Source of the DNA: a virus
Taxonomy: Duplodnaviria; Heunggongvirae; Uroviricota; Caudoviricetes
Strand: one strand, 5' to 3'
IMG/VR virus record: IMGVR_UViG_3300032250_000269
Span: 1 to 25,068 of that record
Length of the DNA stretch: 25,068 bases
Part shown: piece after piece, positions 1 through 16,267 of the stretch
Layout of the letters: each line of letters begins with the position of its first letter
Position numbering within the stretch: position 1 is the first letter of the stretch
Notes under the pieces: model-generated
What the model saw: the letters and a program-made list of their open reading frames with translations, nothing else
What the model was told of the DNA's origin: nothing
The model's database searches: none
Made by a program: the position numbers and the translations under genes

Positions 1-1
1 A

Positions 2-76
2 GATTGTGAAAATTTTGAGAAAGCAGTGTTGGTAAAAAATAAATTTGATGAAGAAATCACTAGAAGAGGTTTATAA
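2..76 (+). CDS. 3' end of an upstream ORF (partial), possibly the AP2-like C-terminus of a homing endonuclease
   Basis: Frame 2 reads DCENFEKAVLVKNKFDEEITRRGL* with TAA at 74-76. Loosely resembles the C-terminal helix of the HNH-AP2 proteins at 5354 and 6656; too short to be sure. Confidence 0.4.
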   Translation, partial: DCENFEKAVLVKNKFDEEITRRGL

Positions 77-85
77 TTTTTTTGC

Positions 86-114
86 TTTACATTTTTCACC
101 ATGCCATCTAGTAT
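86..114 (+). promoter_or_regulatory. Sigma70-type (early-like) promoter for the gp43 C-terminal ORF
   Basis: TTTACA (86-91), 17 nt, TAGTAT (109-114), intergenic; RBS GAGGA at 126-130 precedes ATG 139. Confidence 0.55.
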
Positions 115-138
115 AATTACCAATAGAGGATTTTCACA

Positions 139-1911
139 ATGAACATCGAAGATTTATATTATATGGACCTAACAAAATTATCTGATGATGAATTGTTGGA
201 TTTATCAAAAAATGTTAATATTAAAGCAAATTCAGAATGTCATCAAGCCGGAATGGAATACAACATTCATGACGTTGACTTGATCGATATGCTTGAAGCT
301 AAGTTGAAGCTAATTGAAATGGTGTTCGCCATTGCATATGATGCTAAGGTTAACTTCGAAGACGCATTGACTTCAGTGCTTCTATGGGATGTTATCATTC
401 ATAACTATCTGTTGTCTTTCAACACTGTTGTGAAGCCACAGGAAAATAACATACCAGAACATGCTATTGTTGGTGGCTATGTGAAAGACCCGCATGTTGG
501 TTTAACCAAATGGCCAGTATCGTTCGATCTTACCTCACTATACCCACACTTGATGATTCAATATCAAATATCACCAGAAAATTATGTTAAAAAGATGGAG
601 TTTGATATCGATGAATTCCTCGCTATCTATGATGCTGGCTTCCTAGACAGCACTGATGAGCGTTTGAGGAATACTCATACATTCAAATCTTTGCAGTACG
701 CCCACGAACACAATCTATCATTGACTGCAAACGGGGGTCTTTATAGAAGAGAAGATGGGTTTCTTCCAAATCTTATGGATAGGATGTTTAAAGAAAGAAA
801 TGAATATAAAAACCTGATGATGGATGCTAAGAAGGAGTACGCACAAACAAAAGCACCTGAACTTCTAAATACCATTTCAAAGTATAACAACCTTCAGCAA
901 ACCCGTAAGGTCAATCTGAACTCTGCTTACGGATCACTAGCTAACAAGTACTTCCGCTGGTTTAGTACTGCTGTTGCTGAATCTATTACTACTTCTGGTC
1001 AGCTATCAATTCGCTGGATTGAAATGAAGCTTAATCGTTATCTTAACAAGCTGCTTGGCACGACTGATATTGATTATGTTGTTGCAATTGACACGGATTC
1101 GGTGTATATTCGCCTTGATTGTGTTGTAGAAAAGTTCTTCCCCGGTAAGGACACAAAGAAGACTGTTGCTCTTCTGGATAAAATTTGTCAAGAAAAGCTA
1201 CAGCCATTCATTACCAAATCATATGAAGAACTTGCAACTCTTATGAATGCACGTGAGAACAAGATGTTCATGAAGCGTGAGAATATTGCTAATAAGGCAA
1301 TATGGATCGCTAAGAAGCGTTATATCATGAACGTGTATGATAGTGAAGGTGTATCATACGAAGAACCAGAACTCAAGATGATGGGCATTGAAGCTATTCG
1401 TTCTTCGACGCCCGGTATTGTTCGTTCTGCTATTAAAAATTCTCTCAGTATTATTATGAATGAAGATGAAAAAACTCTTCAGCAATACGTGATCGACTTT
1501 GAAAAACAATTCTTTGCAAGTCCATTTGAATTGGTTGCCTTCCCTCGTGGTGTCAGTGACCTAGAAAAATATGCTGACAAGGAAAAAATATTTGGATTTA
1601 AGACGCCTGTACACGTAAAAGGTTCACTTTTTTTCAATTATTTGCTAGAAAAAATGAAACTAAATGATAAATATGAGAGGATTTCTAGTGGTGATAAGAT
1701 CAAGTTCTGTTACCTCAAAGAACCCAATATATATCGAACACCAGTAATTTCTTGTGGTCCGGTAATACCAGAAGAACTTGACTTGAAGCGTCATATCGAT
1801 TACCATACACAATTCGAGAAGGCATACTTATCGCCATTGTCGAATATCACAGATGCTATTGGATGGCAGCTTGTTGATAGACCTTCTCTTATGAATTTCT
1901 TTGAGGATTAA
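139..1911 (+). CDS. 43: Family B DNA polymerase (T4 gp43-like), C-terminal part: ExoIII, palm, fingers, thumb
   Basis: ExoIII-like YNIHDV; motif A SFDLTSLYP; motif B KVNLNSAYG; motif C AIDTDSVY; KKRY; clamp-binding-like tail SLMNFF. ExoI/ExoII and the N-terminal domain are absent. In-frame TAG at 124-126 and its own RBS. Confidence 0.95.
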   Translation: MNIEDLYYMDLTKLSDDELLDLSKNVNIKANSECHQAGMEYNIHDVDLIDMLEAKLKLIEMVFAIAYDAKVNFEDALTSVLLWDVIIHNYLLSFNTVVKPQENNIPEHAIVGGYVKDPHVGLTKWPVSFDLTSLYPHLMIQYQISPENYVKKMEFDIDEFLAIYDAGFLDSTDERLRNTHTFKSLQYAHEHNLSLTANGGLYRREDGFLPNLMDRMFKERNEYKNLMMDAKKEYAQTKAPELLNTISKYNNLQQTRKVNLNSAYGSLANKYFRWFSTAVAESITTSGQLSIRWIEMKLNRYLNKLLGTTDIDYVVAIDTDSVYIRLDCVVEKFFPGKDTKKTVALLDKICQEKLQPFITKSYEELATLMNARENKMFMKRENIANKAIWIAKKRYIMNVYDSEGVSYEEPELKMMGIEAIRSSTPGIVRSAIKNSLSIIMNEDEKTLQQYVIDFEKQFFASPFELVAFPRGVSDLEKYADKEKIFGFKTPVHVKGSLFFNYLLEKMKLNDKYERISSGDKIKFCYLKEPNIYRTPVISCGPVIPEELDLKRHIDYHTQFEKAYLSPLSNITDAIGWQLVDRPSLMNFFED

Positions 1912-1912
1912 A

Positions 1913-2176
1913 ATGAAAAATTTGGAACTAGATGATGAGTTTGATTTTGGGTTCTCTTCAATTAGTGAAGGCGACTTCATTGATAGAGAGAATAAGGCAG
2001 TAGCTAGTGCCGTTGAAGGTGTCCAAAGTAAAGTTGAGCAAATGTATAGTTTAATACTACCGTTACTCAACAATCTGGCTAAGGATGGAGACACAAATGC
2101 CTATATCCATTGGCCAAATCGTGTTGATAAGATTGAGCAGTTTAAAAACAAATTGCTTGATATTGTGAATAGCTAA
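1913..2176 (+). CDS. Small hypothetical protein between gp43 and uvsX
   Basis: ATG 1913 follows GAGGA (1903-1907), a better start than TTG 1901. FDFGFS and YIHWPNR pattern recalled from T4-like phage hypotheticals. Confidence 0.75.
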   Translation: MKNLELDDEFDFGFSSISEGDFIDRENKAVASAVEGVQSKVEQMYSLILPLLNNLAKDGDTNAYIHWPNRVDKIEQFKNKLLDIVNS

Positions 2177-2247
2177 AAAACATACGTAAAAAATAAGCAA
2201 AGATCAGAACATTATTCCCAAAAGGGATCATATAAAGGAAAAAATAT

Positions 2248-3348
2248 ATGTCATTACTCGATAAACTAAAAAAATCATCAACAATCAAGGACAGTTCTGT
2301 CCTATCAAAGTCAAAGTTCTTCACAAAGAAGGACATGATTCCAACACCAATTCCAGCAATCAACATTGCACTATCTGGTAGTCTAGACGGCGGTCTAACT
2401 CCCGGTCTTACCATGTGGGCTGGTCCATCAAAGCACTTTAAGACAGCATTCTCGCTTCTTATGGCGAAGTCCTATATGGACAAGTATCCTGAATCTGTGC
2501 TACTATTTTATGATAGTGAGTTTGGTACTCCACAAGCATACTTTGAATCTTTCGGTATTGATATGGATCGTGTTCTACACACACCAATCACCGATATTGA
2601 ACTATTAAAGTTTGATTGTATGAAGCAGATCGAAGCAATTGAACGTGATGAGCGTGTTATCATCATCATCGATTCTATCGGCAATCTTGCCTCAAAGAAA
2701 GAAGTTGAAGACGCACTTGACGGTAAGTCAACAACAGACATGACACGTGCTAAGCAACTAAAGTCATTCTTTCGTATGATCACACCACACCTCACAATCA
2801 AGGATATTCCTATGATTGCGGTTAACCATACCTATAAGACACTTGAACTTTATGCCAAGGATGTTGTAGGTGGTGGTACTGGTTCGTACTACTCTGCCGA
2901 TAACATTTTCATCATTGGTCGCCAACAGGAAAAGGACAACAAGAAAGACCTTGTTGGATATAACTTCATCATTAACGTAGAGAAGAGCCGCTATGTGCGT
3001 GAGAAGTCAAAGATTCCTGTTACCGTTCTTCATGAAGGGGGTATTTCAAAGTGGTCAGGTCTTCTTGACATTGCAGAAGAATCTGGTCATATCGTAAAGA
3101 CTAAGATTGGCAACAGCACTGCTTATGCCAAGGTTGATATGAAGACAGGCGAAGTTGACGAGGAAAATAAGGTCAAGGCTGATGATACTAACACATCTGC
3201 TTTCTGGCTTCCTATTCTAAAGGATCAGAGTTTCCGTGACTTCGTTGAAAAGAAGTTTAGTGTTGCTCATGGTGATATCATTCAAGAAGAAGATGATGTT
3301 ATTTCTGTGATCGATAGTATTGAAGATGAAGAAGAAGTCATTTCATAA
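2248..3348 (+). CDS. uvsX: RecA-like recombinase UvsX
   Basis: Walker A GPSKHFKT, FYDSEFG, Walker B IIIIDSIGNL, DMTRAK, GGTG, NVEKSR, acidic tail. Confidence 0.96.
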   Translation: MSLLDKLKKSSTIKDSSVLSKSKFFTKKDMIPTPIPAINIALSGSLDGGLTPGLTMWAGPSKHFKTAFSLLMAKSYMDKYPESVLLFYDSEFGTPQAYFESFGIDMDRVLHTPITDIELLKFDCMKQIEAIERDERVIIIIDSIGNLASKKEVEDALDGKSTTDMTRAKQLKSFFRMITPHLTIKDIPMIAVNHTYKTLELYAKDVVGGGTGSYYSADNIFIIGRQQEKDNKKDLVGYNFIINVEKSRYVREKSKIPVTVLHEGGISKWSGLLDIAEESGHIVKTKIGNSTAYAKVDMKTGEVDEENKVKADDTNTSAFWLPILKDQSFRDFVEKKFSVAHGDIIQEEDDVISVIDSIEDEEEVIS

Positions 3349-3363
3349 TAATGATTGACTAAA

Positions 3364-3395
3364 ACGACAGGTGTTGGTAAAACAGCACCTGTCGT
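3364..3395 (+). other. Intergenic hairpin between uvsX and gene 41
   Basis: ACGACAGGTG-TTG / CAG-CACCTGTCGT, 13 bp stem with one G-U pair, GTAAAA loop; no U-tract. Confidence 0.6.
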
Positions 3396-3430
3396 GCCTT
3401 CCATATTCAACAATACTATAAGGAACTTTA

Positions 3431-4813
3431 ATGTCGCTTGAGAATGTAATTTTCAATAACCTAATTAATAACGAAGATTATGGTCGTAAGGTTATTCCCT
3501 TTCTTAAATCAGAATATTTTCAATCAAAGACCGATCAGGTTATCTTTGAATTGATCAACAATTATGTCTCGTCTTACAATGCATTTCCAACCAAAGAAGT
3601 ATTGAAGATCGATCTGTCCAACTATGTTGGTATTTCAGATGAACAGTTTGTTGACTGTAAGAATATTATTGATAAAATTCCCGACCAATCAGATACACTT
3701 TCAAGGATTGAATGGCTTGTCGATCAGACAGAAGCTTTCTGTCAAGAGAAGGCTATATTTAATGCAATCACAAAGTCTATTGAAATTATTGGCGATTCTT
3801 CAGGACAACTATCAAAGGGTTCTATTCCAAGTCTATTGACAGACGCTCTCGCAGTATCTTTTGATACTTCTATTGGTCATGACTTCTTAACAGACACAGA
3901 TTCTCGTTTTGAATTCTATCATCGTAAAGAAGAGCGTATTGCTTTTGACATAGAATATCTCAACAAGATAACTAAGGGTGGTCTTCCTCGTAAGACACTC
4001 AACGTTATTCTTGCTGGTACTGGTGTTGGTAAGTCATTGGCTATGTGTCATATGGCTTCTGCTAATCTTTTGGACGGTAAGAACGTCCTCTACATCACCA
4101 TGGAAATGGCTGAAGAAAAGATTGCAGAGCGTATCGATGCTAATCTTTTGAATATACCACTAGACCAGTTATACGATATTCCAAAGGATTTATATGATAA
4201 AAAGATTAATCGTATTCGTGAGAAGACAGTTGGAAAACTTATCATTAAGGAATATCCAACTGCTTGTGCTGGTTCTGCGAATTTCCGTCATCTTCTAAAT
4301 GAACTAAAGATAAAAAGAAATTTTGTACCAGACATTATCTATATCGACTATCTCAATATTTGTAGCTCTTCACGTATACGTCAAGGCGCTGGTGTAAACT
4401 CATATACCTACGTTAAGGCTATTGCTGAAGAACTTCGTGGTCTAGCAGTTGAATTTAATGTTCCTATCGTGACAGCTACACAGACAACTCGTGGTGGATA
4501 TGACAACAGCGATGTTGGTCTAACTGATACCTCAGAATCATTTGGTCTTCCTGCAACGGCAGACCTTATGTTTGCTTTGATTTCAACAGACGAACTTAAA
4601 CAGTTGAACCAGATTATGGTAAAGCAGTTGAAAAATCGTTATGCCGATCCTGAAATGTACAAGCGTTTCGTTATTGGTGTTGACAAGTCACGAATGAAGC
4701 TGTATGACGCAGAACAGTCAGCACAAGACGATCTTGTAAATGATGCAGTTGCTCCTGATACAGCTTTTGGACAAAGAGCAAGTAAGAAGCCATCCTTTGA
4801 TGATTTTAAGTAA
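3431..4813 (+). CDS. 41: Replicative DnaB-like helicase gp41
   Basis: Walker A AGTGVGKS, YITMEMAEE, Walker B IYIDYLNI, TATQTTR, SESFGLPATAD, KQLKNRY. Confidence 0.97.
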   Translation: MSLENVIFNNLINNEDYGRKVIPFLKSEYFQSKTDQVIFELINNYVSSYNAFPTKEVLKIDLSNYVGISDEQFVDCKNIIDKIPDQSDTLSRIEWLVDQTEAFCQEKAIFNAITKSIEIIGDSSGQLSKGSIPSLLTDALAVSFDTSIGHDFLTDTDSRFEFYHRKEERIAFDIEYLNKITKGGLPRKTLNVILAGTGVGKSLAMCHMASANLLDGKNVLYITMEMAEEKIAERIDANLLNIPLDQLYDIPKDLYDKKINRIREKTVGKLIIKEYPTACAGSANFRHLLNELKIKRNFVPDIIYIDYLNICSSSRIRQGAGVNSYTYVKAIAEELRGLAVEFNVPIVTATQTTRGGYDNSDVGLTDTSESFGLPATADLMFALISTDELKQLNQIMVKQLKNRYADPEMYKRFVIGVDKSRMKLYDAEQSAQDDLVNDAVAPDTAFGQRASKKPSFDDFK

Positions 4814-4824
4814 GGAGTGAACGT

Positions 4825-5043
4825 ATGAATTACAAGCTAGTCGATAATGCTGATCCAATGTTTGAGGGTGATTTTATGTATTCCACCTCAGACTTAATTG
4901 AAGTCAATACCGGTCTTACAATTAAAACTACCATGAAAAAGGAAGAAGGTAGAAGTCTTCTACGTCACCTCAATATGGGAGGCGGTTTTGATGGTTTTAC
5001 CCCTGCATTTTTTTGCCAATCTCTGAAACTAAAGGAAATATAA
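4825..5043 (+). CDS. Small hypothetical protein
   Basis: RBS AGGAG upstream; LNMGGGFDGFTPAFF motif recalled from T4-like phage hypotheticals; stop overlaps the next ATG. Confidence 0.75.
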   Translation: MNYKLVDNADPMFEGDFMYSTSDLIEVNTGLTIKTTMKKEEGRSLLRHLNMGGGFDGFTPAFFCQSLKLKEI

Positions 5044-5330
5044 TGTTTATTGAAACCCCCATCAAAAATGGTGATACTGTAACGCTAAAGCTTATCTCTG
5101 GTGAGGAAGTTGTTGGTCGCCTCTCTGATACCACTGAATCTTATTTTACTCTGTCTAAGCCTATGACATTTATTATGGGTCCACAAGGTTTTGGTATGGT
5201 GCCTTATATGTTCTCTGCTCCACAAGATGCAAAGATCAAGATCAAGGAAAGCTCTGTTGTTGCAGTGGCCAAGACTGACGAACAAATTAACAAGCAGTAT
5301 CTTTCGCAGACTAGTAATTTACTTGTGTAA
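5043..5330 (+). CDS. Small beta-barrel protein, possibly Sm-like fold
   Basis: ATG 5043 overlaps the upstream TAA, RBS AAGGA. Pattern VTLKLISGEEVVGRL...LSKP resembles Sm1-type motifs. Confidence 0.6.
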   Translation: MFIETPIKNGDTVTLKLISGEEVVGRLSDTTESYFTLSKPMTFIMGPQGFGMVPYMFSAPQDAKIKIKESSVVAVAKTDEQINKQYLSQTSNLLV

Positions 5331-5353
5331 ATTAAAATAAAGGAATAGTAAAA

Positions 5354-5917
5354 ATGAATTATAGAAATGATCTAACAGCAGAATATGTTAAAGAATGTTT
5401 GGAATATAATCCTGAAACGGGATTGCTCAAGTGGAAAGAAAGACCATTAGAACATTTTAAAAGTGAGAATGATTGTAAGAGATGGAATTCAAAGTATGCA
5501 AATAAAAAAGCTGGAACGTTATCTTCTTCTGGATATATTGATATAAAAATTAGTAGTGTAATTTATCGAGCACATCGAATTGCGTGGTTAATTTTTTATG
5601 GGAAATGGCCAAAAGATCAAATTGATCATAATGATGGTGAACGCTCTAACAATAAAATTGACAATCTAAGTGATGTGCCAAACTCTATAAATGGAAAAAA
5701 TCAAGCAATTAGAATTGATAACAATACTGGTCATGTGGGAGTTAAAAAAACAATACATGCTACATGGAGAGCATCTATTATGGTTGACGGAATTGCATAT
5801 GATCTTGGAACACATAAAAATATAGAAGAAGCAATAAAAGCACGTAAAGAAGCTGAAATAAAGCATAATTTTCATGCTAATCACGGTAGAAAATCATCGA
5901 CTAAAAAAGCTGCTTGA
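5354..5917 (+). CDS. Free-standing HNH homing endonuclease with C-terminal AP2-like DNA-binding domain
   Basis: YRAHRIAW; QIDHNDGERSNNKIDNL (HNH); NTGHVGV...WRASI...LGTHKNIEEAIKARKEAE (AP2-like). Confidence 0.9.
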   Translation: MNYRNDLTAEYVKECLEYNPETGLLKWKERPLEHFKSENDCKRWNSKYANKKAGTLSSSGYIDIKISSVIYRAHRIAWLIFYGKWPKDQIDHNDGERSNNKIDNLSDVPNSINGKNQAIRIDNNTGHVGVKKTIHATWRASIMVDGIAYDLGTHKNIEEAIKARKEAEIKHNFHANHGRKSSTKKAA

Positions 5918-5929
5918 GATAAAAAACTA

Positions 5930-5958
5930 TTGACAGTTCCTTTCGAATCACCTATAGC
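5930..5958 (+). promoter_or_regulatory. Sigma70-type (early-like) promoter
   Basis: TTGACA (5930-5935), 17 nt, TATAGC (5953-5958), just after the HNH stop; RBS AAAGGAA and ATG 5987 follow. Confidence 0.7.
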
Positions 5959-5986
5959 GGGTTCAACAAAACGAAAGGAACTGTCA

Positions 5987-6265
5987 ATGACCATTGAAAT
6001 TTACACTTCGGATTGCTCTTTTGTTAAGTCGAACAAGGCACTTTATGTTTCAGCACAAATGGAATGTCTTGGTATTTCTGGGCGGGGTTATCCTAAGCAG
6101 CTTTTTGTTACTTCTGATGACACTGGACGTTCTGTAAAGTTCGTTGCTATTAAAGAGGGTCATCCTCATTTTAATCATGACTTTTGGGATGGTGAGATGG
6201 CTATTTACGAGCCTGTTATCGCTCTTCCTAAAGTTGACATTCTGGTTATTAGTTATGGCATGTGA
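5987..6265 (+). CDS. Hypothetical protein (92 aa)
   Basis: ATG 5987 with AAGGAA RBS; the ORF-track TTG 5930 start coincides with the -35 box. Confidence 0.65.
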   Translation: MTIEIYTSDCSFVKSNKALYVSAQMECLGISGRGYPKQLFVTSDDTGRSVKFVAIKEGHPHFNHDFWDGEMAIYEPVIALPKVDILVISYGM

Positions 6266-6659
6266 GAAGTATTTTAAGATACTTCAGAAAGTAGCTGAAG
6301 CCGTAGAGCCTGTTTCTAGACAGAGACTTTCGGCATGTTTAGTCTACAAGAACGAAATTATTGGGATGGGCTTCAATAAAAAGAAGTCCCATCCCTTTCA
6401 GCGTAAATTCTCCAAGCACGAAGAAGCAATCTATCTCCATGCTGAAATTGACGCAATTAAGAATGCATTGAAGAATGTAGATGCTGAGACTATCAGCAAA
6501 AGCACCCTGTACATCATGCGAGTAAAATATGAAGACATGAACGCCAAACGGTTTGTTCGTGGTCTTTCTAAACCTTGTGAGGGATGTGCACGAGCAATCG
6601 CACAATTTGGAATTAAAAAAGTTTACTATACAACAGAAGAAGGATTTGATTATCTATGA
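6255..6659 (+). CDS. Zn-dependent cytidine/dCMP deaminase-superfamily protein
   Basis: LHAEIDAI and SKPCEGC motifs, C-terminal GIKKVYYT. Start at MACEKYF; the upstream in-frame extension is an overlap with the previous gene. Confidence 0.85.
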   Translation: MACEKYFKILQKVAEAVEPVSRQRLSACLVYKNEIIGMGFNKKKSHPFQRKFSKHEEAIYLHAEIDAIKNALKNVDAETISKSTLYIMRVKYEDMNAKRFVRGLSKPCEGCARAIAQFGIKKVYYTTEEGFDYL

Positions 6660-7291
6660 CACCTAAGAGTAGAAGCATTCCAGTAGAATATATTAAGCAA
6701 TGTTTTGAGTATCGTGAAGAAGAAGTTGATGGAGTTCTTCAAGGAAACGTATATTGGAAATATCGTGAAGATATGCCAAAATGGTGGAATACAAAATTTG
6801 CTGGTAAAAAAGTTGGTAATATAAATGGTAGAGGTTATTATAGTACAATTTTGGTGTATAATGGTTTTAGGTGCTGTTTATCAAATCACATAATTGTATG
6901 GATTATTAATAAGGGATGTTATCCAATCAATGTAATTGATCATATTGACCGTAACAAAATTAATAACCTTATTGTAAATTTAGACGATTGTTTACAAGAA
7001 GATAATGCTAATAATAGAGGCGCAAACTCAAATTCTAGTAGTCATTTTCGTGGAGTTTCTTTTATAACAAGACGAAATAAATGGTATGTGCAAATTGAAG
7101 TGAACGAAAAAGGTATTTTCGGCGGATATTTTGATGATGAAATACAATCAGCATTAAAAGCAAATAAACTTATTATTGAAAACTTTGGACATACTAAAAA
7201 CCTTTATCAAAACGACATAAGTATGGGATACACCAATCCACAATATCCAAACAAGCCTAGAGGATGGGTTCCAGAAGAGGTAGCATCATGA
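6656..7291 (+). CDS. Free-standing HNH homing endonuclease with AP2-like domain
   Basis: VIDHIDRNKINNLIVNL (HNH); SSHFRGVSF...KWYVQI...GGYFDDEIQSA (AP2-like); ATGA overlaps at both ends. Confidence 0.88.
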   Translation: MTPKSRSIPVEYIKQCFEYREEEVDGVLQGNVYWKYREDMPKWWNTKFAGKKVGNINGRGYYSTILVYNGFRCCLSNHIIVWIINKGCYPINVIDHIDRNKINNLIVNLDDCLQEDNANNRGANSNSSSHFRGVSFITRRNKWYVQIEVNEKGIFGGYFDDEIQSALKANKLIIENFGHTKNLYQNDISMGYTNPQYPNKPRGWVPEEVAS

Positions 7292-8097
7292 AGAATTTGA
7301 TTATCGGTGGTTACACCAACTATCAATATGACTTGGTTAAGCCATGGGTAAAATCAATTGGTGAAGTGTGTGATCCAGCAACAACCGACAAGGTTATGGT
7401 CGTTGGTAACACAACACAGGAAGCAATTGATGCACTAACCGCTGATAATTGGATTCTTGTACCAATGGCAGAAGGACAACCACATGTGGTTCGCTTCTTC
7501 AGCATCTTTGACTATCTCAAGGACAACTGGCAGAAGTACGAGTATATTGTGACCACTGATGTTCGTGATGTTATCTTTCAGGCTGATCCATTTGAATATC
7601 TGGATGGGGTTGGCGAATATAATCTTGTATGCGGTTCTGAGAGCATTCAGTACAAAAACGAAGCATGGGGCGATGAGAACCTTCTACAGTGCTATGGTCC
7701 ATATATCCATGAACTATATAGGGATAAGGAAATCTACAACGTAGGTGTCCTTGGTGGTCGTTCTGAATACGTCAAAGACCTAGTGTTGAATATCGCCATC
7801 AACTCTATCAATCGTCCTATTCCTATTGTAGATCAAGCTGTCTTCAATATGCTTATCAACACACAGCCATATAAGGACACTGTGTTTTTTGCCAAGCAGG
7901 AAAATGCGTGGGCATGTCAAGCTGGTACTGTTGCTGATCCTAACCATATTGAAAGATTTCGCCCCCATCTACTAGAACCAGAACCTGTCTGGAAGGACGG
8001 TAAAGTCTATACTTGGAATGGTGCTCTCTTTACAATTGTTCATCAATATGATAGAGTTCCTGAATGGAATCAATATATTAAGGAAAAGTATATATGA
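7288..8097 (+). CDS. Putative nucleotide-diphospho-sugar (GT-A-like) transferase
   Basis: DxD-type TTDVRDVIFQADPF, NVGVLGG, DQAVFN, IVHQYDR. ATG 7288 overlaps the upstream TGA. Confidence 0.65.
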   Translation: MKNLIIGGYTNYQYDLVKPWVKSIGEVCDPATTDKVMVVGNTTQEAIDALTADNWILVPMAEGQPHVVRFFSIFDYLKDNWQKYEYIVTTDVRDVIFQADPFEYLDGVGEYNLVCGSESIQYKNEAWGDENLLQCYGPYIHELYRDKEIYNVGVLGGRSEYVKDLVLNIAINSINRPIPIVDQAVFNMLINTQPYKDTVFFAKQENAWACQAGTVADPNHIERFRPHLLEPEPVWKDGKVYTWNGALFTIVHQYDRVPEWNQYIKEKYI

Positions 8098-8897
8098 GTA
8101 ATATTTCAATCGTTACAGCGTTCTATGATATCGGTAGAGGAGATTGGACACCAGATAAAGGATTGCCTTCATATCTTCATAGAACAACCAATGATTATAT
8201 TGAAAGATTTACTCATCTAACAAAACTCGCCAATGAATTGATTGTAGTAACAACCCCAGATATTGGTGTTGTTCTTAAAAATATTCGTAATGATATTAAG
8301 ATTATTGAATATGATCCATTTATTGATTATGCATATGAATTAAATCATATTTCTATGATACAAAATAGTGCTGAGTTCCAGCAATCTATTCGTCCAAGTC
8401 AGATTAAAAATCCAGAGTATTGGAGTTCTAAGTATGTTCTCATCAATATACTTAAGTCCCACTTTGTTAACATGGCAATAGAACGTGGGTTGGTAACAAA
8501 CGATACGGTTTCTTGGCTGGACTTTGGTTATTGTAGAAGTGAGGACACCTTACCTAAAAGTTTAAAATGGTCATATGATTTTGATCCATCAAAAATCCAT
8601 TTGTTTGATTATAAAGACTTACTTCCTAATAAAACAATAAATCAAATAATTTCCACAAATGATGTACATATTCTTGGAGCCAAGATTGTTGCTCATAAAG
8701 ATATGTGGCCTATAATGGAAAATAAGATATTTGAAGTAATGAATCTGTTGTTCACAAACAATCTGATAGATGATGATCAGACACTTTTATTGATGTGTTC
8801 TAGAATGTATCCAAATTTATTTGAACTGCATAGAATACCAGATCATCAAAATGGAAGTGATCCATTCATTATTTTTAAGCAATTTAATAGAGAGTGA
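8094..8897 (+). CDS. HtrL/YibB (WlaTC)-like putative glycosyltransferase
   Basis: N-terminal IVTAFYDIGRGDW, NPEYW, WLDFGY and DDDQ motifs typical of this family. Confidence 0.75.
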   Translation: MSNISIVTAFYDIGRGDWTPDKGLPSYLHRTTNDYIERFTHLTKLANELIVVTTPDIGVVLKNIRNDIKIIEYDPFIDYAYELNHISMIQNSAEFQQSIRPSQIKNPEYWSSKYVLINILKSHFVNMAIERGLVTNDTVSWLDFGYCRSEDTLPKSLKWSYDFDPSKIHLFDYKDLLPNKTINQIISTNDVHILGAKIVAHKDMWPIMENKIFEVMNLLFTNNLIDDDQTLLLMCSRMYPNLFELHRIPDHQNGSDPFIIFKQFNRE

Positions 8898-8903
8898 TAT
8901 ATT

Positions 8904-9857
8904 ATGAAAAGTATTCTAGTAACAGGTGGAAATGGTTTAATTGCCTCTCAATTCATTCGTCAGGTTTTGAAAGAAACTGATTGGAATGTAACAGCAACAA
9001 TCAATGAAACTTTTAACATTGGTCGCCTATTAGAGATTGCTGAAGAATTTTCAGACGATGATAATGATCGTGTAGTTATAACACGTAAATATAGTCATGG
9101 TCAAAAATTTGACATTATCGTTCATCTGGCTGCTGCTACTGATGTTGGTGAGTCAATTGACAATCCCATGAAACATTTTGAACAGAACGTTGTAGAGACG
9201 GCCAAGATTTTAGAATTTGCTCGTACAATAGAAAATCTTGAAAGCTTTATTTTTGTTAGTAGCAATGAAGTATTTGGACCATCATCCGATGATGTAGATT
9301 ATACTGAACTTGATGCTCTCAATCCACACACACCATATGCTGGTACAAAGGCTGCTGCTGAGCAACTATGTCTTTCATATTATAACACCTACAAACTTCC
9401 TATCAATATCGTTCGTACTATGAATGTGTTTGGTGAACTTCAAAATCCAAATAGATTTTTCTCTGTGTGTGTTGATAAGATTTTGAATGGTGAAGAAATT
9501 TCTGTTTACGACAATCTTCGCACATATATTCATGCACAAGATGTTGCTGATGGTATTATGTTCATTCTAAGGGGTGAATTCTTGTATCCGGCCTTTGAGC
9601 ACGATGGCTGTCCTAGATATCATATTGTTGGGAATCAACAAGTCAATAATCTTTGGGTTGTCAAGGAGTTTGGTAAGGCACTTGGTATTGAACCAAAGTA
9701 TGAGGTTGAATATGCTGGTAGAGTAGGTTATGAAAATCGATACTCTATGTCTGGTGCCAAGCTATATAGTATGGGATGGAAGCCAAAGGCAACTCTCTCA
9801 CAACGAATTGAACAGATGGCCTTATGGTTGAGAGATAATAAAGAAAGGAATATATAA
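8904..9857 (+). CDS. NAD-dependent nucleotide-sugar epimerase/dehydratase (extended SDR, RmlB-like)
   Basis: LVTGGNGLIA, VHLAAATDV, SSNEVFG, catalytic YAGTK, RTMNVFGE, R-x-YIHAQD. Confidence 0.9.
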   Translation: MKSILVTGGNGLIASQFIRQVLKETDWNVTATINETFNIGRLLEIAEEFSDDDNDRVVITRKYSHGQKFDIIVHLAAATDVGESIDNPMKHFEQNVVETAKILEFARTIENLESFIFVSSNEVFGPSSDDVDYTELDALNPHTPYAGTKAAAEQLCLSYYNTYKLPINIVRTMNVFGELQNPNRFFSVCVDKILNGEEISVYDNLRTYIHAQDVADGIMFILRGEFLYPAFEHDGCPRYHIVGNQQVNNLWVVKEFGKALGIEPKYEVEYAGRVGYENRYSMSGAKLYSMGWKPKATLSQRIEQMALWLRDNKERNI

Positions 9858-10369
9858 TGGAATGTTCAGGATTTGGACTACTGGAACTAATCAAAGATAT
9901 TAATAATCCTGTTGGCGTTGAAATCGGCTCTGCTGAAGGAGATACTACAGAATTTCTTTTATCAAATCATTCTTCGCTCAATTTAACATCAATTGATCCT
10001 TATGTTGAATATGTCGATTGGAATGGAAATAATATCGTTCGTAGAGAAACGTCCTTAAATTATCTTACACAAAGATTAGAAAAATTTAAGGATAGGTTTA
10101 AACTAATACAAATGTTTTCTGACGATGCTGTTGATTTGATAGAAGATGAATCTCTAGATTTTATTTTTATCGATGGTCTTCATACTTATGATCAAGTAAC
10201 AAAAGACTGTAATAATTATTACTCAAAGGTAAAAAGTGGTGGCATTTTTGCTGGGCATGACTATCATGTTATAAATGAAGTAGGTAAAGCGGTTGATGAG
10301 TTTGCAGCTAAATTTGGTGTTGAAATCTCTCATACCAAATATGATGTGTGGTATTGGGTAAAGCCATAA
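9857..10369 (+). CDS. Class I SAM-dependent methyltransferase (Methyltransf_24-like)
   Basis: GVEIGSAEG, SIDPY, LDFIFIDGLHTY, KVKSGGIFAGHDY. Confidence 0.9.
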   Translation: MECSGFGLLELIKDINNPVGVEIGSAEGDTTEFLLSNHSSLNLTSIDPYVEYVDWNGNNIVRRETSLNYLTQRLEKFKDRFKLIQMFSDDAVDLIEDESLDFIFIDGLHTYDQVTKDCNNYYSKVKSGGIFAGHDYHVINEVGKAVDEFAAKFGVEISHTKYDVWYWVKP

Positions 10370-10385
10370 TCGATAGGACGTGTAT

Positions 10386-11207
10386 ATGAAGAAATATTAT
10401 TTTTCTGTAGCAACCATTTTTAAAAATGAAAGCTGGGGAATGAAAGAATGGGTAGAGCATTATAAACGTTATGGTGTAGATCATATCTACATGGTAAACG
10501 ATGACAGCGATGACGAGTTTCTTCCTATTCTACAGCCCTTTATAGATGAAGGGTATGTAACTCTATATCATAATGAAATAAAAGAAATGTATGTCGGAAG
10601 ACAAGTTGACATTAACAATCGATATTTTAAAAGAGTTCTAGAAGATACAGAATGGCTTTCTGTTCTTGATATGGATGAGTATCTTTACTGTCCTAAACAA
10701 ACAGATATAAAGAAAATGATCATGAAGTATGATGATGCTAGGATTGGCTATATTGAAGTTAATTGGGCATATTTTACATCAAACGGATATATTGATCAGC
10801 CAAGTAGTGTTGTTGAATCTTTTATTATGAGAGTACCGTATAATGCTACCGTATACGCTCGTGCACCTCATATGCAATATCCTGAACATATCGGTTCTAA
10901 CGGACCAAAAGTAATATTTAATACAAAATATATTGTCAATTCTATTGATGTTCATAGTATCAATATTAATGCAAATCGTGTGAATGGTTCTTTTATTTCT
11001 AATGAAAACGATCCAGATTTTATAATCAATCATTACCAGCTACAGTCAAGAGAGTATTGGGAAAAGATAAAAATGCATCGTGGAGATGTTAATCATTGGT
11101 TTCGTGGTAATATAAGAAATTTTGAATTATTTGAAGCATTTGATAAAATTGGAACAGTAGAAGACACTAGATTAAGAGACATGAACACAAAGCTCAACTA
11201 TGAATAA
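10386..11207 (+). CDS. GT92/GT2-like glycosyltransferase
   Basis: VATIFKNE..MKEWVEHY..YGVDHIYMVNDDSDD, WLSVLDMDEYLY, INHYQLQS. ATG 10386 has an AGGA RBS. Confidence 0.8.
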   Translation: MKKYYFSVATIFKNESWGMKEWVEHYKRYGVDHIYMVNDDSDDEFLPILQPFIDEGYVTLYHNEIKEMYVGRQVDINNRYFKRVLEDTEWLSVLDMDEYLYCPKQTDIKKMIMKYDDARIGYIEVNWAYFTSNGYIDQPSSVVESFIMRVPYNATVYARAPHMQYPEHIGSNGPKVIFNTKYIVNSIDVHSININANRVNGSFISNENDPDFIINHYQLQSREYWEKIKMHRGDVNHWFRGNIRNFELFEAFDKIGTVEDTRLRDMNTKLNYE

Positions 11208-11865
11208 AAATATTTTTATTATAACATCAGCACTTAAGCCTCGTATAGGTGTCTTTTCACACGAAGAAAGATACAACCAGACTATAAACTGCTTGGAAGA
11301 TTTGAGGCTTAAGCTGCCAGATGAATTTTTAATATTAGCAGATTGTTCTGTGTTTTCGTTGTCTGAAGAAGAAAAGTTAGAACTCAGTTCTAAAGTAGAT
11401 TTGTTCTTAGACCTCTCTACATGCGAAAAAACTCTAGAATATTCAAAAATGGGGTTAAAGAGCCATGCTGAAAATTCTCTTTTATATACAGTATTAACAA
11501 AAATAAAAGATGAGAGTTTTTTTAAAAATTCCAAGAGAGTTTTTAAGATTTCTGCCAGATCATGGCTAACAGAACAATTTACTTTAAGCGACTATGAGGA
11601 TACATATGGAAAATATGTATTTAAAAAAAGAATATTGTCATGGATGAATAACTCTACGTACCTTTTTGTTACTAGATTATATTCATTTTGTTCTTCGTTG
11701 GTTGAAGAATATCTAGAAATAATTCAAAAAAATGAAGGTATGTTATCTTATCTTGACACAGAGCACATACATTTTATTAATGTTCCTCAAGATAAGCTAA
11801 TAGAACTTGACAATATTCATTGTTGGGGATATCTTGCATCAAACGGTACAACAGAATATTATTAA
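11200..11865 (+). CDS. Hypothetical protein, probably glycosyltransferase-related
   Basis: IITSA..ERYNQT and FKISAR pattern recalled from glycan clusters; sits between a GT and an MTase. Confidence 0.6.
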   Translation: MNKNIFIITSALKPRIGVFSHEERYNQTINCLEDLRLKLPDEFLILADCSVFSLSEEEKLELSSKVDLFLDLSTCEKTLEYSKMGLKSHAENSLLYTVLTKIKDESFFKNSKRVFKISARSWLTEQFTLSDYEDTYGKYVFKKRILSWMNNSTYLFVTRLYSFCSSLVEEYLEIIQKNEGMLSYLDTEHIHFINVPQDKLIELDNIHCWGYLASNGTTEYY

Positions 11866-11881
11866 GATAAAGGGAATTGAG

Positions 11882-12532
11882 ATGAGTTTAAAAGACATTA
11901 TGCTAAATGATCTTACAATGCATTCCATAAAATGGAATCCTTATTTTGACATATATGAAAAGTATTTTTCTAAATTTGTTGGTAAAGCTCCTGTGATTGT
12001 TGAAATCGGCGTTCATGGAGGTGGAAGCTTGCAGTTATGGAGGAAGTATTTTGGTCCTGATGCAATAGTAATCGGCATTGATATCAACTCAAATGTTCTA
12101 AATTATTCATATGATGAAAACACACACGTTATAATTGGTGATCAAGGAAATCCACAATTTTGGGATGAGTTTGTCAAACAATTTCCAAAAATTGATATTG
12201 TGGTGGATGACGGCAGTCATATTGGGAAACATCAAATCACCACATTTGAAAAGCTGTTCCCATTTGTATCAGAAGGTGGTATATATCTATGTGAGGACAC
12301 GCATACCAGTTGGTATTATGATACTCACAACTCTTATGAAGACAGCTTTATTCGCTATACAAAAGACCTGATCGATGTTATGCACAAAAATCATATGAAG
12401 GAAACTCCAAGACTAATTGACTTATCCGATCTTTGTAGTAATATTCGATCAATTAATTTTTCAGATAGTATTGTTGTGTTTGAAAAAGAAAAGCCAATTG
12501 AATTCTATCTTATAGATGTTCCTAATAGATAA
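11882..12532 (+). CDS. Class I SAM-dependent methyltransferase (sugar O-methyltransferase-like)
   Basis: KWNPYFDIYEKYF, VEIGVHGGGSLQLWRKYF, GIDIN, DIVVDDGSH, GGIYLCEDTHTS. Start at MSLKD after GGGA. Confidence 0.88.
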   Translation: MSLKDIMLNDLTMHSIKWNPYFDIYEKYFSKFVGKAPVIVEIGVHGGGSLQLWRKYFGPDAIVIGIDINSNVLNYSYDENTHVIIGDQGNPQFWDEFVKQFPKIDIVVDDGSHIGKHQITTFEKLFPFVSEGGIYLCEDTHTSWYYDTHNSYEDSFIRYTKDLIDVMHKNHMKETPRLIDLSDLCSNIRSINFSDSIVVFEKEKPIEFYLIDVPNR

Positions 12533-12543
12533 GGAGATAAAAA

Positions 12544-13101
12544 ATTAATATTTTTTATATTGATGAAGACCCACGCCAATGTGCAGAGTGGATGGTTGAT
12601 CGTCACACATATAAGATGATTCTTGAAACTGCACAACTGCTATCAACCGCTCATCGTGTTCTCGATGGTAAGGAAACAATTTTAGAAGGATGGGTCGATG
12701 AGTTTGGTATCAAGCATAAAAAGTCTAAGCACTGGATTCTTGATGATGGGCGCAATGATATACTTTATCGTGCTACTCATATCAATCATCCCTCTGCTGT
12801 ATGGGTCCGCAATTCTGTTGAAAATTATCTCTGGCTTGTGGAACATCTATTCGCTCTTGGTGACGAATATCGTTATAGGTATGAAAAGCCACAACACCAT
12901 GCCTCAATAATTAAAATGGGGTATGAGCTTCAGGCACCTCCATACAATCTAAAAGAATGGGAATGGACACCAATACCATGCTGTATGCCAGACTGTTACA
13001 AAACCTCTGACAATCCTGTGATCAATTATAGGAATTATTACAGGGAAGGTAAGAAGCACCTTCATTCTTGGAAGAAAAGAGACAAGCCTGAATGGATTTA
13101 A
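12544..13101 (+). CDS. DenV-like pyrimidine-dimer DNA glycosylase family protein, probable ATT start
   Basis: Frame is open from ATT 12544: (M)NIFYIDEDPRQCAEWMVDRHTYKMILETAQLLSTAH; YRATHINHPSAVW; D-x-H-x6-E spacing as in DenV. AGGAG lies 7 nt upstream of ATT. Confidence 0.75.
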   Translation: MNIFYIDEDPRQCAEWMVDRHTYKMILETAQLLSTAHRVLDGKETILEGWVDEFGIKHKKSKHWILDDGRNDILYRATHINHPSAVWVRNSVENYLWLVEHLFALGDEYRYRYEKPQHHASIIKMGYELQAPPYNLKEWEWTPIPCCMPDCYKTSDNPVINYRNYYREGKKHLHSWKKRDKPEWI

Positions 13102-13105
13102 CTTG

Positions 13106-13129
13106 AACCCCGCTTCGGCGGGGTTTTTT
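13106..13129 (+). terminator. Rho-independent terminator with cUUCGg loop
   Basis: AACCCCGC-TTCG-GCGGGGTT followed by a T-run. Confidence 0.92.
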
Positions 13130-13133
13130 CTTG

Positions 13134-13141
13134 TATAAATA
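13134..13141 (+). promoter_or_regulatory. T4-type late promoter
   Basis: Exact TATAAATA immediately after the terminator. Confidence 0.85.
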
Positions 13142-13167
13142 GTTCTATGAATAACAAGAGGACTATC

Positions 13168-13590
13168 ATGACTAATTGGATAAAAAACAAGTTTGAGAAT
13201 GAAATTAAAAGTTTCATGGTTATTACAGATAAAGTTGTGTCTAATATAAGTCAAAAAGAGATTAAAAAGAAGATTGTTGATCAGATGATTGACGATTTAA
13301 AAAAGAAATATAACTCTAAAAATCTTCAAGACCTTAGACCAATTACATGGAGAAGTCTTGAAGGAAGCCAATCGTGGAACGCAGACACCATGGTGAATAT
13401 ACAAAAATCTCTTAGAAATGCAGATGAAATTAAAAAAATATATCAATCAATTTATAATATGGTATCCAACAAATCAGTTAATGCTCCAATCATCATGATG
13501 CAGAATAATATTGGTATGCTCATATCAGGAGAGCATACTCTTATGGCATGTAGACTTTTAAACATTCAACCAAAGGTAATAATGATATGA
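13168..13590 (+). CDS. Hypothetical protein with degenerate ParB/Srx-like C-terminus
   Basis: ATG 13168 after GAGGA (13147 is too close to the promoter). APIIM...MLISGEHTLMAC.LL resembles ParB-N PIIV...DGxHRxxA. Confidence 0.6.
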   Translation: MTNWIKNKFENEIKSFMVITDKVVSNISQKEIKKKIVDQMIDDLKKKYNSKNLQDLRPITWRSLEGSQSWNADTMVNIQKSLRNADEIKKIYQSIYNMVSNKSVNAPIIMMQNNIGMLISGEHTLMACRLLNIQPKVIMI

Positions 13591-14021
13591 AAACCCTTAA
13601 ACAATTTCTAGACGAAGCTGAAACAACAAAGGTAACTATGTTTAATCGTGATTTGGATAATGATGAAATTGAAACGGGTGCTACTGTCAGTAGATATGGT
13701 AGACCAATGGAACGAGAGCATTCACAGGATAAAGTGAAGATGATACCATTGAATAGAACGATTCGTCACGAGACACCAGAAAAAACAGCACGTAATACAG
13801 CTACACCTGAAAGTGAAAAAGCAGTACAGGGTATTATGTCTGATATCAAGAAGAAAAAGGATATTGAGCCGATTCTAGTGCGTAGGAAAAAAGGTGGTAC
13901 TTATCAAATAATGGATGGTCATCATCGTCTTGAAGCACATCTGAGAATGGGATTAAGACATATTCCGGCGAGAGTAATAGACGCTAAGAATGTCAAATAT
14001 GATGGCACTGAAGAGAAATAA
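13587..14021 (+). CDS. ParB/Srx-like domain protein with a capsid-targeting-sequence-like N-terminus
   Basis: IEPILVRR...YQIMDGHHRLEAHLRMGLRHIPARV; N-terminus MKTLKQFLDEA. Confidence 0.8.
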   Translation: MKTLKQFLDEAETTKVTMFNRDLDNDEIETGATVSRYGRPMEREHSQDKVKMIPLNRTIRHETPEKTARNTATPESEKAVQGIMSDIKKKKDIEPILVRRKKGGTYQIMDGHHRLEAHLRMGLRHIPARVIDAKNVKYDGTEEK

Positions 14022-14033
14022 GGTTATTAAATA

Positions 14034-15890
14034 ATGGCACAGTATAACGCTAATACATCATCATTTCTAGGACAAGCAAAGTCGCTCTTTGAAATTAATA
14101 TGCTTGCTACTGAAAGTGGACTGCCTGTTACTAATACTAATCCACTACCCGTTACACTAGGTTCTGAAAATATTACAATTACAGGTAATGTGAATGTTGG
14201 TACTACAGTTGAAGTATCAAGTACACCTGAAAATCCAGTACACAATCACATTACTGAAGTCGGTACAAGTGGTGCACTAGCAGTTTCATATATGCCTATT
14301 GGTGGAAATGTAGTTGTTACATCTGGTTCTGTTAATGTAGGTAATTTTCCAGCATCGCAGAATGTTATTGTTACAAATACAACACTAGCAGCCAACGTTG
14401 TCGGAGTCGTTAATGTAGGTAATATACCTGCATCACAGAATGTCGTAGTCACATCAATTAATTCTGGTAATCTTTCTATCTACTCTGGTAATGTTACTGT
14501 GAGTGGATCGGTTAATGTAGGTAATATACCTACCACACAAAATGTTTTCATCACTAATACTATTCTTGCTGCTAATGTAACTGGTGTTGTCAATGTAGGT
14601 AATATTCCTGCTAGTCAAAATGTAGTTGTTACATCTGGTAATGTTGCTGTTACTGGTATAGTGAACGTTGGTAACATTCCCGCCTCTCAGAATGTTGTTG
14701 TAACATCAGGTAATTTTGCATTTGATCCTGTAGCATCAGATGCGTTTGGTAGACACAGAGTATCATTACCGCTAACTCTATTTGATTCTTCTCATCGATA
14801 CAAAGACAATGGATTATGGAGTACATCTAATACTTCTGGTACTACCTATGAGTTTAGACCTAATGAAGGTTTAGTAAATCTTAATCTTCCCACAACAGCA
14901 AATGCAGAAATCATTCGAGAGACTAATAAAGTATTTGCATATCAACCCGGTAAATCACTTCTTGTTCTTAATACATTTGTCCCAGAACCACCAAAGCCAA
15001 ATCTTCGTCAGCGTATAGGTTATTTTGGTGCACAAAATGGAATCTATTATGAGCTAGAAGGAAATACGGCATACTTTGTAGAAAGATCGTATGTCACAGG
15101 TTCTGTAGTAGAAACACGAGTAGCGCAAGCAGATTGGAGTGAAAACACTCTATCCAGTTTTGATAAGAGCAAAGCTCAGATTTTCTGGATGGATATTGAA
15201 TGGCTTGGTCTCGGTACTGTTCGTTGCGGTTTTGTTATTAATGGTAAGTTTATTCACTGTCATTCGTTCCACCATGCTAATTTAATTACTTCGACTTATA
15301 TTACTACAGCATCACTGCCTGTTCGTTATGAAATTAAAAATACAGGCACAACTGCAAGCGTTTCTACTATGAAGCAAATTTGCTCGTCTGTAATCTCTGA
15401 AGGTGGGTATGAACTGAGAGGTATTCAACAAGCAGTTGGCACCGCTATTACTGCCCCAAAAACTCTTGCAACTGCTGGTACGTTTTATCCTGTCGTTGCT
15501 TTAAGGTTAAAATCAACGGCATTAGATGCTATCGTTATTCCTACTGCCATCTCTATTTTAGGTGTTGGTGATTCTACATATAATTGGCAGATTAGATCAA
15601 ATCTGACTACTACTGCTGGTTCATGGGTAAGTGCTGGTGCAGATAGCTCAGTCGAATACAATTTAACTGGAACTGGTATTACTGGTGGTAGAATATTGGC
15701 CAGTGGCTATCTTGATAGCTCTAAAAACAATATTGCGGGTATTGATATTTTGAAAGAAGCACTGTTTAAGTTTCAAATGGAAAGAAACGGTTTAACTGGT
15801 ACATCATTTGAAATTGCTATTGTTATTACAGCAGCCAATGATAACCGTACTGTACATGCTTCAATGGATTGGGAAGAAATTTCTAGGTAA
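14034..15890 (+). CDS. Putative virion structural protein with internal repeats
   Basis: Gly/Thr/Val/Asn-rich and beta-prone; DAFGRHRVSLPLTLFDSSHRY, YQPGKS and DIEWLGLGTVRCGF recalled from T4-like structural proteins; late context. Confidence 0.7.
   Translation: MAQYNANTSSFLGQAKSLFEINMLATESGLPVTNTNPLPVTLGSENITITGNVNVGTTVEVSSTPENPVHNHITEVGTSGALAVSYMPIGGNVVVTSGSVNVGNFPASQNVIVTNTTLAANVVGVVNVGNIPASQNVVVTSINSGNLSIYSGNVTVSGSVNVGNIPTTQNVFITNTILAANVTGVVNVGNIPASQNVVVTSGNVAVTGIVNVGNIPASQNVVVTSGNFAFDPVASDAFGRHRVSLPLTLFDSSHRYKDNGLWSTSNTSGTTYEFRPNEGLVNLNLPTTANAEIIRETNKVFAYQPGKSLLVLNTFVPEPPKPNLRQRIGYFGAQNGIYYELEGNTAYFVERSYVTGSVVETRVAQADWSENTLSSFDKSKAQIFWMDIEWLGLGTVRCGFVINGKFIHCHSFHHANLITSTYITTASLPVRYEIKNTGTTASVSTMKQICSSVISEGGYELRGIQQAVGTAITAPKTLATAGTFYPVVALRLKSTALDAIVIPTAISILGVGDSTYNWQIRSNLTTTAGSWVSAGADSSVEYNLTGTGITGGRILASGYLDSSKNNIAGIDILKEALFKFQMERNGLTGTSFEIAIVITAANDNRTVHASMDWEEISR
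14331..14705 (+). repeat. Five copies of a VNVGN[IF]PxxQNVxxT peptide repeat
   Basis: Read directly from the translation; copies 1-2 and 3-4 form a larger duplicated unit; synonymous codons have diverged. Confidence 0.9.
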
Positions 15891-15901
15891 GGAAAAAAAA
15901 A

Positions 15902-16195: not shown

Positions 16196-16199
16196 AAAG

Positions 16200-16207
16200 T
16201 ATAAATA
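16200..16207 (+). promoter_or_regulatory. T4-type late promoter
   Basis: Exact intergenic TATAAATA. Confidence 0.85.
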
Positions 16208-16267
16208 GAAGGTGGTTAAGGCTAAGGCAAACACCCATTTAAACAGATAAGTCCAAGGAAAACTCTG

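Follow-up and report, generated by a model that had tools for sequence, protein, structure and literature searches.

The replicative DNA polymerase of T4-like phages, gp43, is encoded by two cistrons, 43A and 43B, in the Aeromonas phages 44RR and 25 and in Acinetobacter T4-like phages (Petrov et al. 2006, 2010; PMC2988022). The two cistrons are separated by a short untranslated spacer in 44RR and by a spacer together with an endonuclease gene in phage 25, whose gp43A and gp43B co-purify and are active (PMC2988022). Ribonucleotide reductase of phage Aeh1 is also made in two parts, NrdA-a and NrdA-b, which carry tails that are essential for activity (PMC3045599). The stretch of DNA analyzed here (the window, 25,068 nucleotides (nt)) comprises bases 1-25068 of the 99,415-bp IMG/VR virus record IMGVR_UViG_3300032250_000269, which is classed as linear with an estimated completeness of 56% (CheckV), and it opens with gene 43 of an uncultured T4-like phage. 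Sequence comparison indicates that this gene is truly split and that the replicative polymerase is encoded as two cistrons, although the break lies at a different place from the one in the Aeromonas phages, inside the proofreading exonuclease domain.

The record starts 138 nt upstream of the 43B start codon and, because the contig begins inside the junction region, 43A is absent from it: no match to PF03104 (exonuclease domain) was found anywhere in the window's own 99-kb contig. The full layout can be seen in the locus L018 (from the 192.7-kb ENA scaffold scaffold_13), in which positions 9863-21773 equal window 1-11911 without mismatch (11,911 nt). There, 43A (8943-9938) codes for 331 amino acids (aa) matching PF03104 and is followed by a 62-nt gap and by 43B (10001-11773). 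The frame that ends at window position 76 closes this 331-aa open reading frame (ORF), the remainder of 43A lying beyond the contig start, and window 1-122 is also identical to positions 826-947 of another locus, L002. The elements of the junction and of the downstream cistron in the window are the following:

2-76, plus strand: 3' end of 43A, with the last 24 codons of its C-terminal tail and the TAA stop (74-76), assigned by identity to L002 826-901 and to L018 up to 9938.
71-122, minus strand: remnant of an HNH homing-endonuclease gene, with its last 16 codons and stop (71-121, 51 nt), up to the deletion junction at 122/123.
77-138, plus strand: intercistronic spacer between 43A and 43B, 62 nt, with a TAG at 124-126 in the 43B frame.
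126-130, plus strand: Shine-Dalgarno-like GAGGA, 8 nt upstream of the 43B ATG, kept in L019, L078 and L002.
139-1911, plus strand: 43B, 590 aa, with ExoIII, the second part of the N-terminal domain, palm, fingers and thumb; motifs A, B and C are intact.
139-252, plus strand: acidic N-terminal leader of gp43B, 38 codons, net charge -5, predicted to be helical at residues 3-8 and 16-36.
259-273, plus strand: ExoIII motif YNIHD, from Tyr41 (259-261) to Asp45 (271-273), aligned with RB69 Tyr323-Asp327.

An earlier reading of the same DNA, made from its letters alone (the initial annotation), had placed the start of the polymerase ORF about 40 aa before ExoIII and had described an in-frame stop at 124-126 and a ribosome-binding site (RBS) belonging to this ORF, all of which agrees with the elements listed above. 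It had also noticed an ORF ending at position 76, which is indeed there, but had called it unrelated to the polymerase and suggested that it may be the homing endonuclease that caused the split; it is instead the end of 43A, and the real HNH gene lies on the opposite strand in L002 and in two further loci, L103 and L104. A promoter of its own for 43B, likewise proposed, was not borne out, since the candidate (TTTACA-17 nt-TAGTAT at 86-114) matches the consensus at 9 of 12 positions and promoter-like matches in 2.4 kb of this AT-rich DNA (15, against 9.0 +/- 2.6 in shuffles) do not clearly exceed the chance expectation. The plus strand between 43A and 43B showed no terminator-like site. Translational bypassing or frameshifting as a way of joining 43A to 43B was rejected, given the in-frame TAG, a gap that ranges from 0 to ~700 nt among relatives, and the separate RBS and start codon of each cistron.

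The break falls at residue ~278 of gp43A, near RB69 positions 304-314 as judged from the alignment of RB69 gp43 to a single-chain relative. This position is within the exonuclease domain, between the ExoII and ExoIII motifs. Single-chain relatives have ~22 native residues, between a Lys-Leu just after ExoII and the Met-Glu-Tyr at the opening of ExoIII, that are missing from the window lineage, where gp43A ends instead in a 53-aa tail and its stop codon and, beyond the gap, gp43B starts with the 38-aa leader. Across the split sequences the tail measures 51-55 aa and the leader 35-40 aa, the latter being absent in single-chain relatives. ExoI (DIE; Asp112 and Glu114) and ExoII (Asn192 and Asp197) are found on gp43A and ExoIII (Tyr41 and Asp45) on gp43B, and therefore the DEDD-type site would have to assemble in trans. 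This is what the initial annotation had anticipated when it placed ExoI and ExoII on a separate upstream polypeptide, and the half that it recommended searching for in upstream sequence, containing the ExoI DIE and ExoII, exists in the L018 scaffold as the 331-aa gp43A with Asp112, Glu114 and Asp197. The exonuclease motifs (ExoI DxE, ExoII NxxxFD and ExoIII YxxxD) are all present and invariant in alignments of 57 sequences, including Tyr41, Asn42 and Asp45 of ExoIII, but they are distributed over two chains. gp43B matches PF00136 (DNA_pol_B; E 5.9e-22) and contains the polymerase motifs A (DxxSLYPS), B (KxxxNSxYG) and C (DTDS), its invariant columns being Asp130, Ser133-Pro136, Lys257, Asn261, Ser262, Tyr264, Gly265 and Asp318-Ser321 (which include Asp318 and Asp320).

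Described split gp43 proteins break in the fingers, as the initial annotation had stated and as the annotated lengths of gp43A show (498 aa in 44RR, 502 aa in Acinetobacter phage AB2I2 and 491 aa in cyanophage ACG-2014f); a fingers break of the 44RR/phage 25 type, near gp43 residue 500, is not what the window gp43 has. Split polymerases found in the literature are cut at domain boundaries or in the fingers, none of them between ExoII and ExoIII, and no report was found of the window's cut site or of a travelling cassette of tail, endonuclease and leader. A separate clade, ~52% identical to the window (L012-L017, e.g. L013:9131-10564), has a first gp43 ORF that ends at 478 aa, and this looks like the known fingers-type split.

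Relatives that are 88-91% identical to the window 43B (L003-L008) encode one chain of ~850 aa; these and L020 (88-93% identity) are single-chain, and 91 fetched loci are intact across the cut site. Homologous tails and leaders are found in the gp43 of the window, L018 and L002; of L019; of L078, L103, L105 and L106; and of L104, so that the cassette is borne by at least four lineages. In a tree made from the gene bodies after removal of the tails, each of the three lineages with complete genes groups as sister to intact genes, with high support (L019-L020, 93%; window-L008, 90% identity), which requires a minimum of three state changes. Between L018 and L019 the DNA of tail, gap and leader is 70-93% identical, while the gene bodies are 43-65% identical with saturated synonymous sites. 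The cassette is therefore younger than its host genes, and the split allele moved between diverged polymerase genes. Transfer would most simply have occurred by endonuclease-driven gene conversion, with a direction that we infer for each event. In a profile search of 1.84 billion representatives the tail turned up on gp43A fragments and on nothing else, leader-bearing protein clusters were only 9 among 5.8 billion, and no fused form with an internal leader was found in longer proteins, although this last negative is weak evidence.

The endonuclease itself is preserved to different degrees in these lineages. L002, which is 92% identical to the window in 43B, has 648 extra nt (L002 948-1595) exactly at window 122/123, and this insert completes a 223-aa minus-strand ORF that matches PF01844 (HNH) with 24.8 bits, against a cut-off of 21.4. 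Orthologous HNH genes with 42-52% mutual identity occupy the gap, at the same position and in the same direction, in L002 (223 aa), L103 (230 aa) and L104 (244 aa), which represent three of the cassette lineages. As the window retains only the end of an L002-type HNH ORF, including the WHGEKC half of a Cys/His zinc-finger-like motif, it is to be regarded as a deletion derivative. Remnants are also present in L019 (16 codons, in a gap of 63 nt) and in L078 (in a gap of 167 nt); L105 has lost the gap altogether, with the stop of 43A overlapping the start of 43B. The deletion junctions of L018 and L019 lie within ~3 nt of each other, yet the near-identical L002 keeps a full HNH gene, which could reflect either one old deletion event with later re-invasion or recurrent deletion. 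Three assemblies (the window at its position 1, the contig of P0002, and L106:1-100) end 99-138 nt upstream of the 43B start, suggesting that endonuclease-plus and endonuclease-minus alleles co-exist in the samples and break the assembly graph.

Some relatives carry further interruptions. L103 (3295-7605) has gp43 in at least three pieces: a 43A of 329 aa, the live minus-strand HNH gene, a 205-aa piece that ends in the fingers, a 263-aa ORF (maybe another endonuclease) and then the remainder of the polymerase, which by tblastn starts near 6546-6604, in a frame that differs from that of the first ATG at 6730. Its uvsX (L103:7617-9793) is a classical fractured gene, in which an N-part ending in an intein-like N-half is followed by a 234-aa HNH gene (26-28% identical to the gp43-gap endonucleases) and by a short C-intein-like leader, ending in His-Asn before Thr, that precedes the UvsX remainder (weak PF14890 match). 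In L105 (1987-4008), of the L078 lineage, a 281-aa HNH gene on the plus strand interrupts 43A a second time, immediately after the DIE of ExoI, and the two resulting pieces (135 and 250 aa) both bear a tail or leader of their own.

Selection was estimated from the ratio of nonsynonymous to synonymous substitution rates (dN/dS). Between L018 and L019 this ratio is 0.185 (tail) and 0.145 (leader), and for the two gene halves, compared with their intact sisters, it is 0.06-0.09; both halves are thus under strong purifying selection. In complex prediction, gp43A and gp43B (with alignments built for this analysis) reached an interface score (ipSAE, interaction prediction score from aligned errors) of 0.87, against 0.00 for the best control, with three runs agreeing in at least 85% of the contacts and a predicted local distance difference test (pLDDT) value of at least 85 for the partner; 58 of 80 solved complexes and 2 of 110 mismatched pairs attain the pass mark of this test. 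The co-folding of both halves that had been put forward with the initial annotation is therefore favorable at the level of models. The confident interface includes tail residues 306-331 and leader residues 3-38, even though tail and leader are the parts without a solved structural counterpart. In models of the single chains, the prediction for gp43A is confident as far as about residue 250 but has pLDDT <50 at 256-331, with helices at 283-292 and 312-329, whereas gp43B (AlphaFold2) has a helical leader (3-8 and 16-36) but poorly placed first 100 residues, with pLDDT <50 at 38-78. Single-chain and complex models fit a mutual dependence of the two chains, short of proof. As for the acidic leader, which had been suspected to be a docking helix, its helical prediction, its conservation in four lineages and its place in the predicted interface are compatible with that role, with support from models only. 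The leader is acidic in all five sequences compared (net -5 to -8), and the tail is basic in L078 and L103 (isoelectric point 9.5-9.7), near neutral in L019 and L104, and has a net charge of -4 in the window lineage. Given this variation, a charge zipper does not seem to be a general account of the tails, and a simple one, as discussed for Aeh1 NrdA (PMC3045599), would not be the whole story here.

Gene 43 of this phage is probably a gene in pieces that encodes a non-covalent two-subunit polymerase with a composite exonuclease site, like NrdA-a and NrdA-b of Aeh1. A mobile cassette, composed of a C-terminal tail with its stop codon, an opposite-strand HNH gene and, after it, an N-terminal leader with its RBS and start codon, would have replaced ~22 native codons between ExoII and ExoIII, and the endonuclease gene would later have been deleted in the window lineage, leaving the 62-nt spacer. 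gp43A (N-terminal domain, ExoI and ExoII) and gp43B (ExoIII and the whole polymerase) would be translated separately and would reassemble non-covalently into an RB69-like enzyme, with a proofreading site made of Asp112, Glu114 and Asp197 from gp43A and Tyr41 and Asp45 from gp43B, and with the helical tail and leader acting as a clasp or filling the interface. A broader and rather doubtful proposal is that HNH gene, tail and leader constitute a portable "cut-and-clasp" unit, in which the endonuclease carries interacting peptides, could fracture an essential enzyme at its active site free of cost and move among diverged polymerase genes, the host keeping a two-subunit polymerase permanently once the endonuclease has decayed. 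Were this true, the ratio in which the two chains are supplied could serve to adjust proofreading.

Several points weigh against the two-subunit interpretation. The window record does not contain 43A, so that the argument depends on the identical longer scaffold. The search of the 99-kb record revealed no second polymerase of family A or B but, this record being only 56% complete, one could be encoded elsewhere. Since the body of the protein resembles RB69 and T4, the result of the complex prediction may be a memory of solved single-chain structures, and its output lists interface residues, not tail-to-leader pairs, so that a direct contact of tail with leader is only conjectural. Charge complementarity of tail and leader is, on the sequences compared, not general. 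Tails of distant lineages are 28% identical, with dN/dS of 0.5-1.2 on 35-50 codons (in the comparison of L018 with L078, too few codons and too diverged to inform on constraint), and the constraint on tail and leader is therefore shown for one pair of lineages only. The cassette tails may be needed for assembly or activity, for which the support, from their dN/dS (0.15-0.19) and their membership in the modelled interface, is only indirect.

Other explanations can be considered for the same arrangement. A tail on the host N-part, an endonuclease gene, and a leader on the host C-part is also the layout of genes fractured by split inteins (PMC2677866), and tail and leader might be the halves of a degenerate, active split intein whose trans-splicing restores one chain. 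The fractured UvsX of L103, with its recognizable split intein and an HNH gene of a related family in between, lends some weight to this idea, as do the Ser with which the window-lineage tail starts and the Ala-Asn-Ser of the leader, loosely similar to an intein C-terminal junction. Tail and leader together, however, amount to ~84-91 aa, and known mini-inteins are well above that size; neither of them gave an intein or Hint Pfam match at E<=10, the leader is predicted to be helical and not beta-rich, and ligation at these points would remove ~12 native residues. The junction residues also vary, Gly being the first tail residue of both L078 and L103 and the leader having Asp-Lys at its junction in L078 and Val-Gln in L104, and Hint-type junctions (Cys or Ser at the N-junction; a C-terminal Asn followed by Cys, Ser or Thr) are not conserved among the cassette lineages, all of which makes a split intein very improbable. 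An intron of group I or II, perhaps carrying a degenerate endonuclease ORF, could also be spliced from the mRNA, the tails being then intron sequence: group I introns do occur in gene 43 of phages 25 and JSE (PMC2993671), and the gap adjoins a conserved catalytic motif, which is a typical site for introns. This seems highly improbable, given that Rfam intron families gave no match at E<=10 in L002 or in L018 9600-10350 (chance-level matches only), that tail and leader evolve as coding sequence (dN/dS 0.15-0.19), that a conserved RBS and start codon are present with the endonuclease gene on the opposite strand, and that L105 has no gap, its 43A stop overlapping the 43B start. Because no intron or intein match was found, the tails are short and evolve as coding sequence, and the junction residues vary, RNA or protein splicing of 43A and 43B appears unlikely, and the initial annotation, which had named splicing among the findings that would refute it, is in this respect sustained by the Rfam and Pfam searches (E<=10).

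The split gene might also be a decaying or partly functional polymerase, for example with gp43B alone working as an exonuclease-deficient enzyme and gp43A being dispensable. Split lineages are rare, as the few leader clusters indicate (9 among 5.8 billion), and the split looks recent beside intact relatives that are 88-93% identical, but decay does not fit well with a dN/dS of 0.06-0.09 on both halves, with the invariance of all exonuclease and polymerase catalytic residues, or with a split that outlasts the loss of the endonuclease in several diverged lineages; the greater part of the N-terminal domain, moreover, is not on gp43B, whose first 100 residues are poorly modelled when gp43A is left out. 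Decay is thus an improbable explanation. An assembly artefact or chimera at the contig end could be suspected because the window contig starts inside the junction and two further assemblies break within ~100-140 nt of it, and a check for misassembly had been recommended in the initial annotation. The arrangement recurs, nevertheless, in separate assembly records (IMG/VR, ENA, Logan and JGI), and the junction is spanned within longer contigs (ENA scaffold_13, of 192.7 kb; IMG/VR 3300032327_001105; Logan SRR14578332; ENA ERZ19037015 and ERZ27271991), the contig breaks being better explained by co-existing endonuclease-plus and endonuclease-minus alleles, so that an artefact is extremely improbable.

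The remaining context of the gene is that of a T4-like phage. The window has a G+C content of 36% and contains a T4-like replication block with the family B polymerase ORF (139-1911), a small ORF, uvsX (2248-3348) and a gp41-type helicase gene (3431-4813), and the closest cultured relatives of its polymerase are Synechococcus myophages, at ~48% identity. An HNH_3-type endonuclease gene is located farther along the block (5354-5917), and blastp detected no similarity between its product and the gap endonucleases of L002, L103 and L104.

Family B replicative polymerases are the textbook case of a single-chain enzyme with its proofreading site in one domain, while here the site would be divided over two polypeptides under selection, suggesting that the exonuclease fold can withstand being split immediately ahead of the ExoIII helix. 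The relatives provide a comparative series (intact gene, cassette with live endonuclease, remnant, and no gap) that could be used to test the proposal of Crona et al. that mobile elements supply their own "antidote" tails, and tail and leader may serve as small natural heterodimerizing peptides for the engineering of split polymerases. Splits of this kind also break assemblies and gene calls at g43, which is a core phylogenetic marker of T4-like phages.

Among the known systems closest to this locus is the nrdA-a/mobE/nrdA-b arrangement of Aeh1 (Friedrich et al. 2007; Crona et al. 2011, PMC3045599). In both, the insertion of a free-standing HNH gene splits an essential enzyme through its active site, the fragments are (here, presumably) translated separately, the fragments carry tails, of which the N-terminal one of the downstream fragment is acidic, close relatives are contiguous, and a homing endonuclease gene lies at the break (in relatives of the window, which has only the 16-codon remnant). 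They differ in that the host gene here codes for a family B polymerase and not for a ribonucleotide reductase, in that the strand of the endonuclease gene is opposite to that of the host gene and the upstream tail is basic in some sequences only, and in that the gp43 cassette is found in four diverged host-gene lineages with a decay series from full gene to remnant to no gap; any role of the tails is here putative. The split of 44RR and phage 25 affects the same enzyme, also as two cistrons with a spacer between them, but its break is in the fingers and its endonuclease is of the GIY-YIG type, whereas the window split separates ExoIII from ExoI and ExoII and is associated with an HNH endonuclease.

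Genes 39 and 60 of T4, split by mobA (PMC2988022, PMC3045599), are another case of endonuclease-associated fracture with tail-like extensions of the fragments, although they code for a different enzyme (a topoisomerase) and gene 60 also uses translational bypassing, unlike the gap described here, which has in-frame stops, a separate RBS and start codon, and a length of 0 to ~700 nt among relatives. Genes fractured with split inteins (Dassa et al. 2009, PMC2677866) show the same three-part layout and occur in metagenomic T4-like phages, but the gp43 cassette is without intein motifs, size or conserved junctions, and reassembly would most likely be non-covalent. The archaeal split family B polymerases of Methanothermobacter and Nanoarchaeum (cited in PMC2677866) are also encoded by two genes, but these are broken elsewhere, Nanoarchaeum uses a split intein, and they have no homing-endonuclease cassette with tails. 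The class of mechanism, endonuclease-linked gene fracture, is already known; what is new with respect to the fractured-gene papers cited here is a cut through the DEDD-type proofreading site of a replicative polymerase, a tail and leader cassette kept over four host-gene lineages, and a natural series of endonuclease decay.

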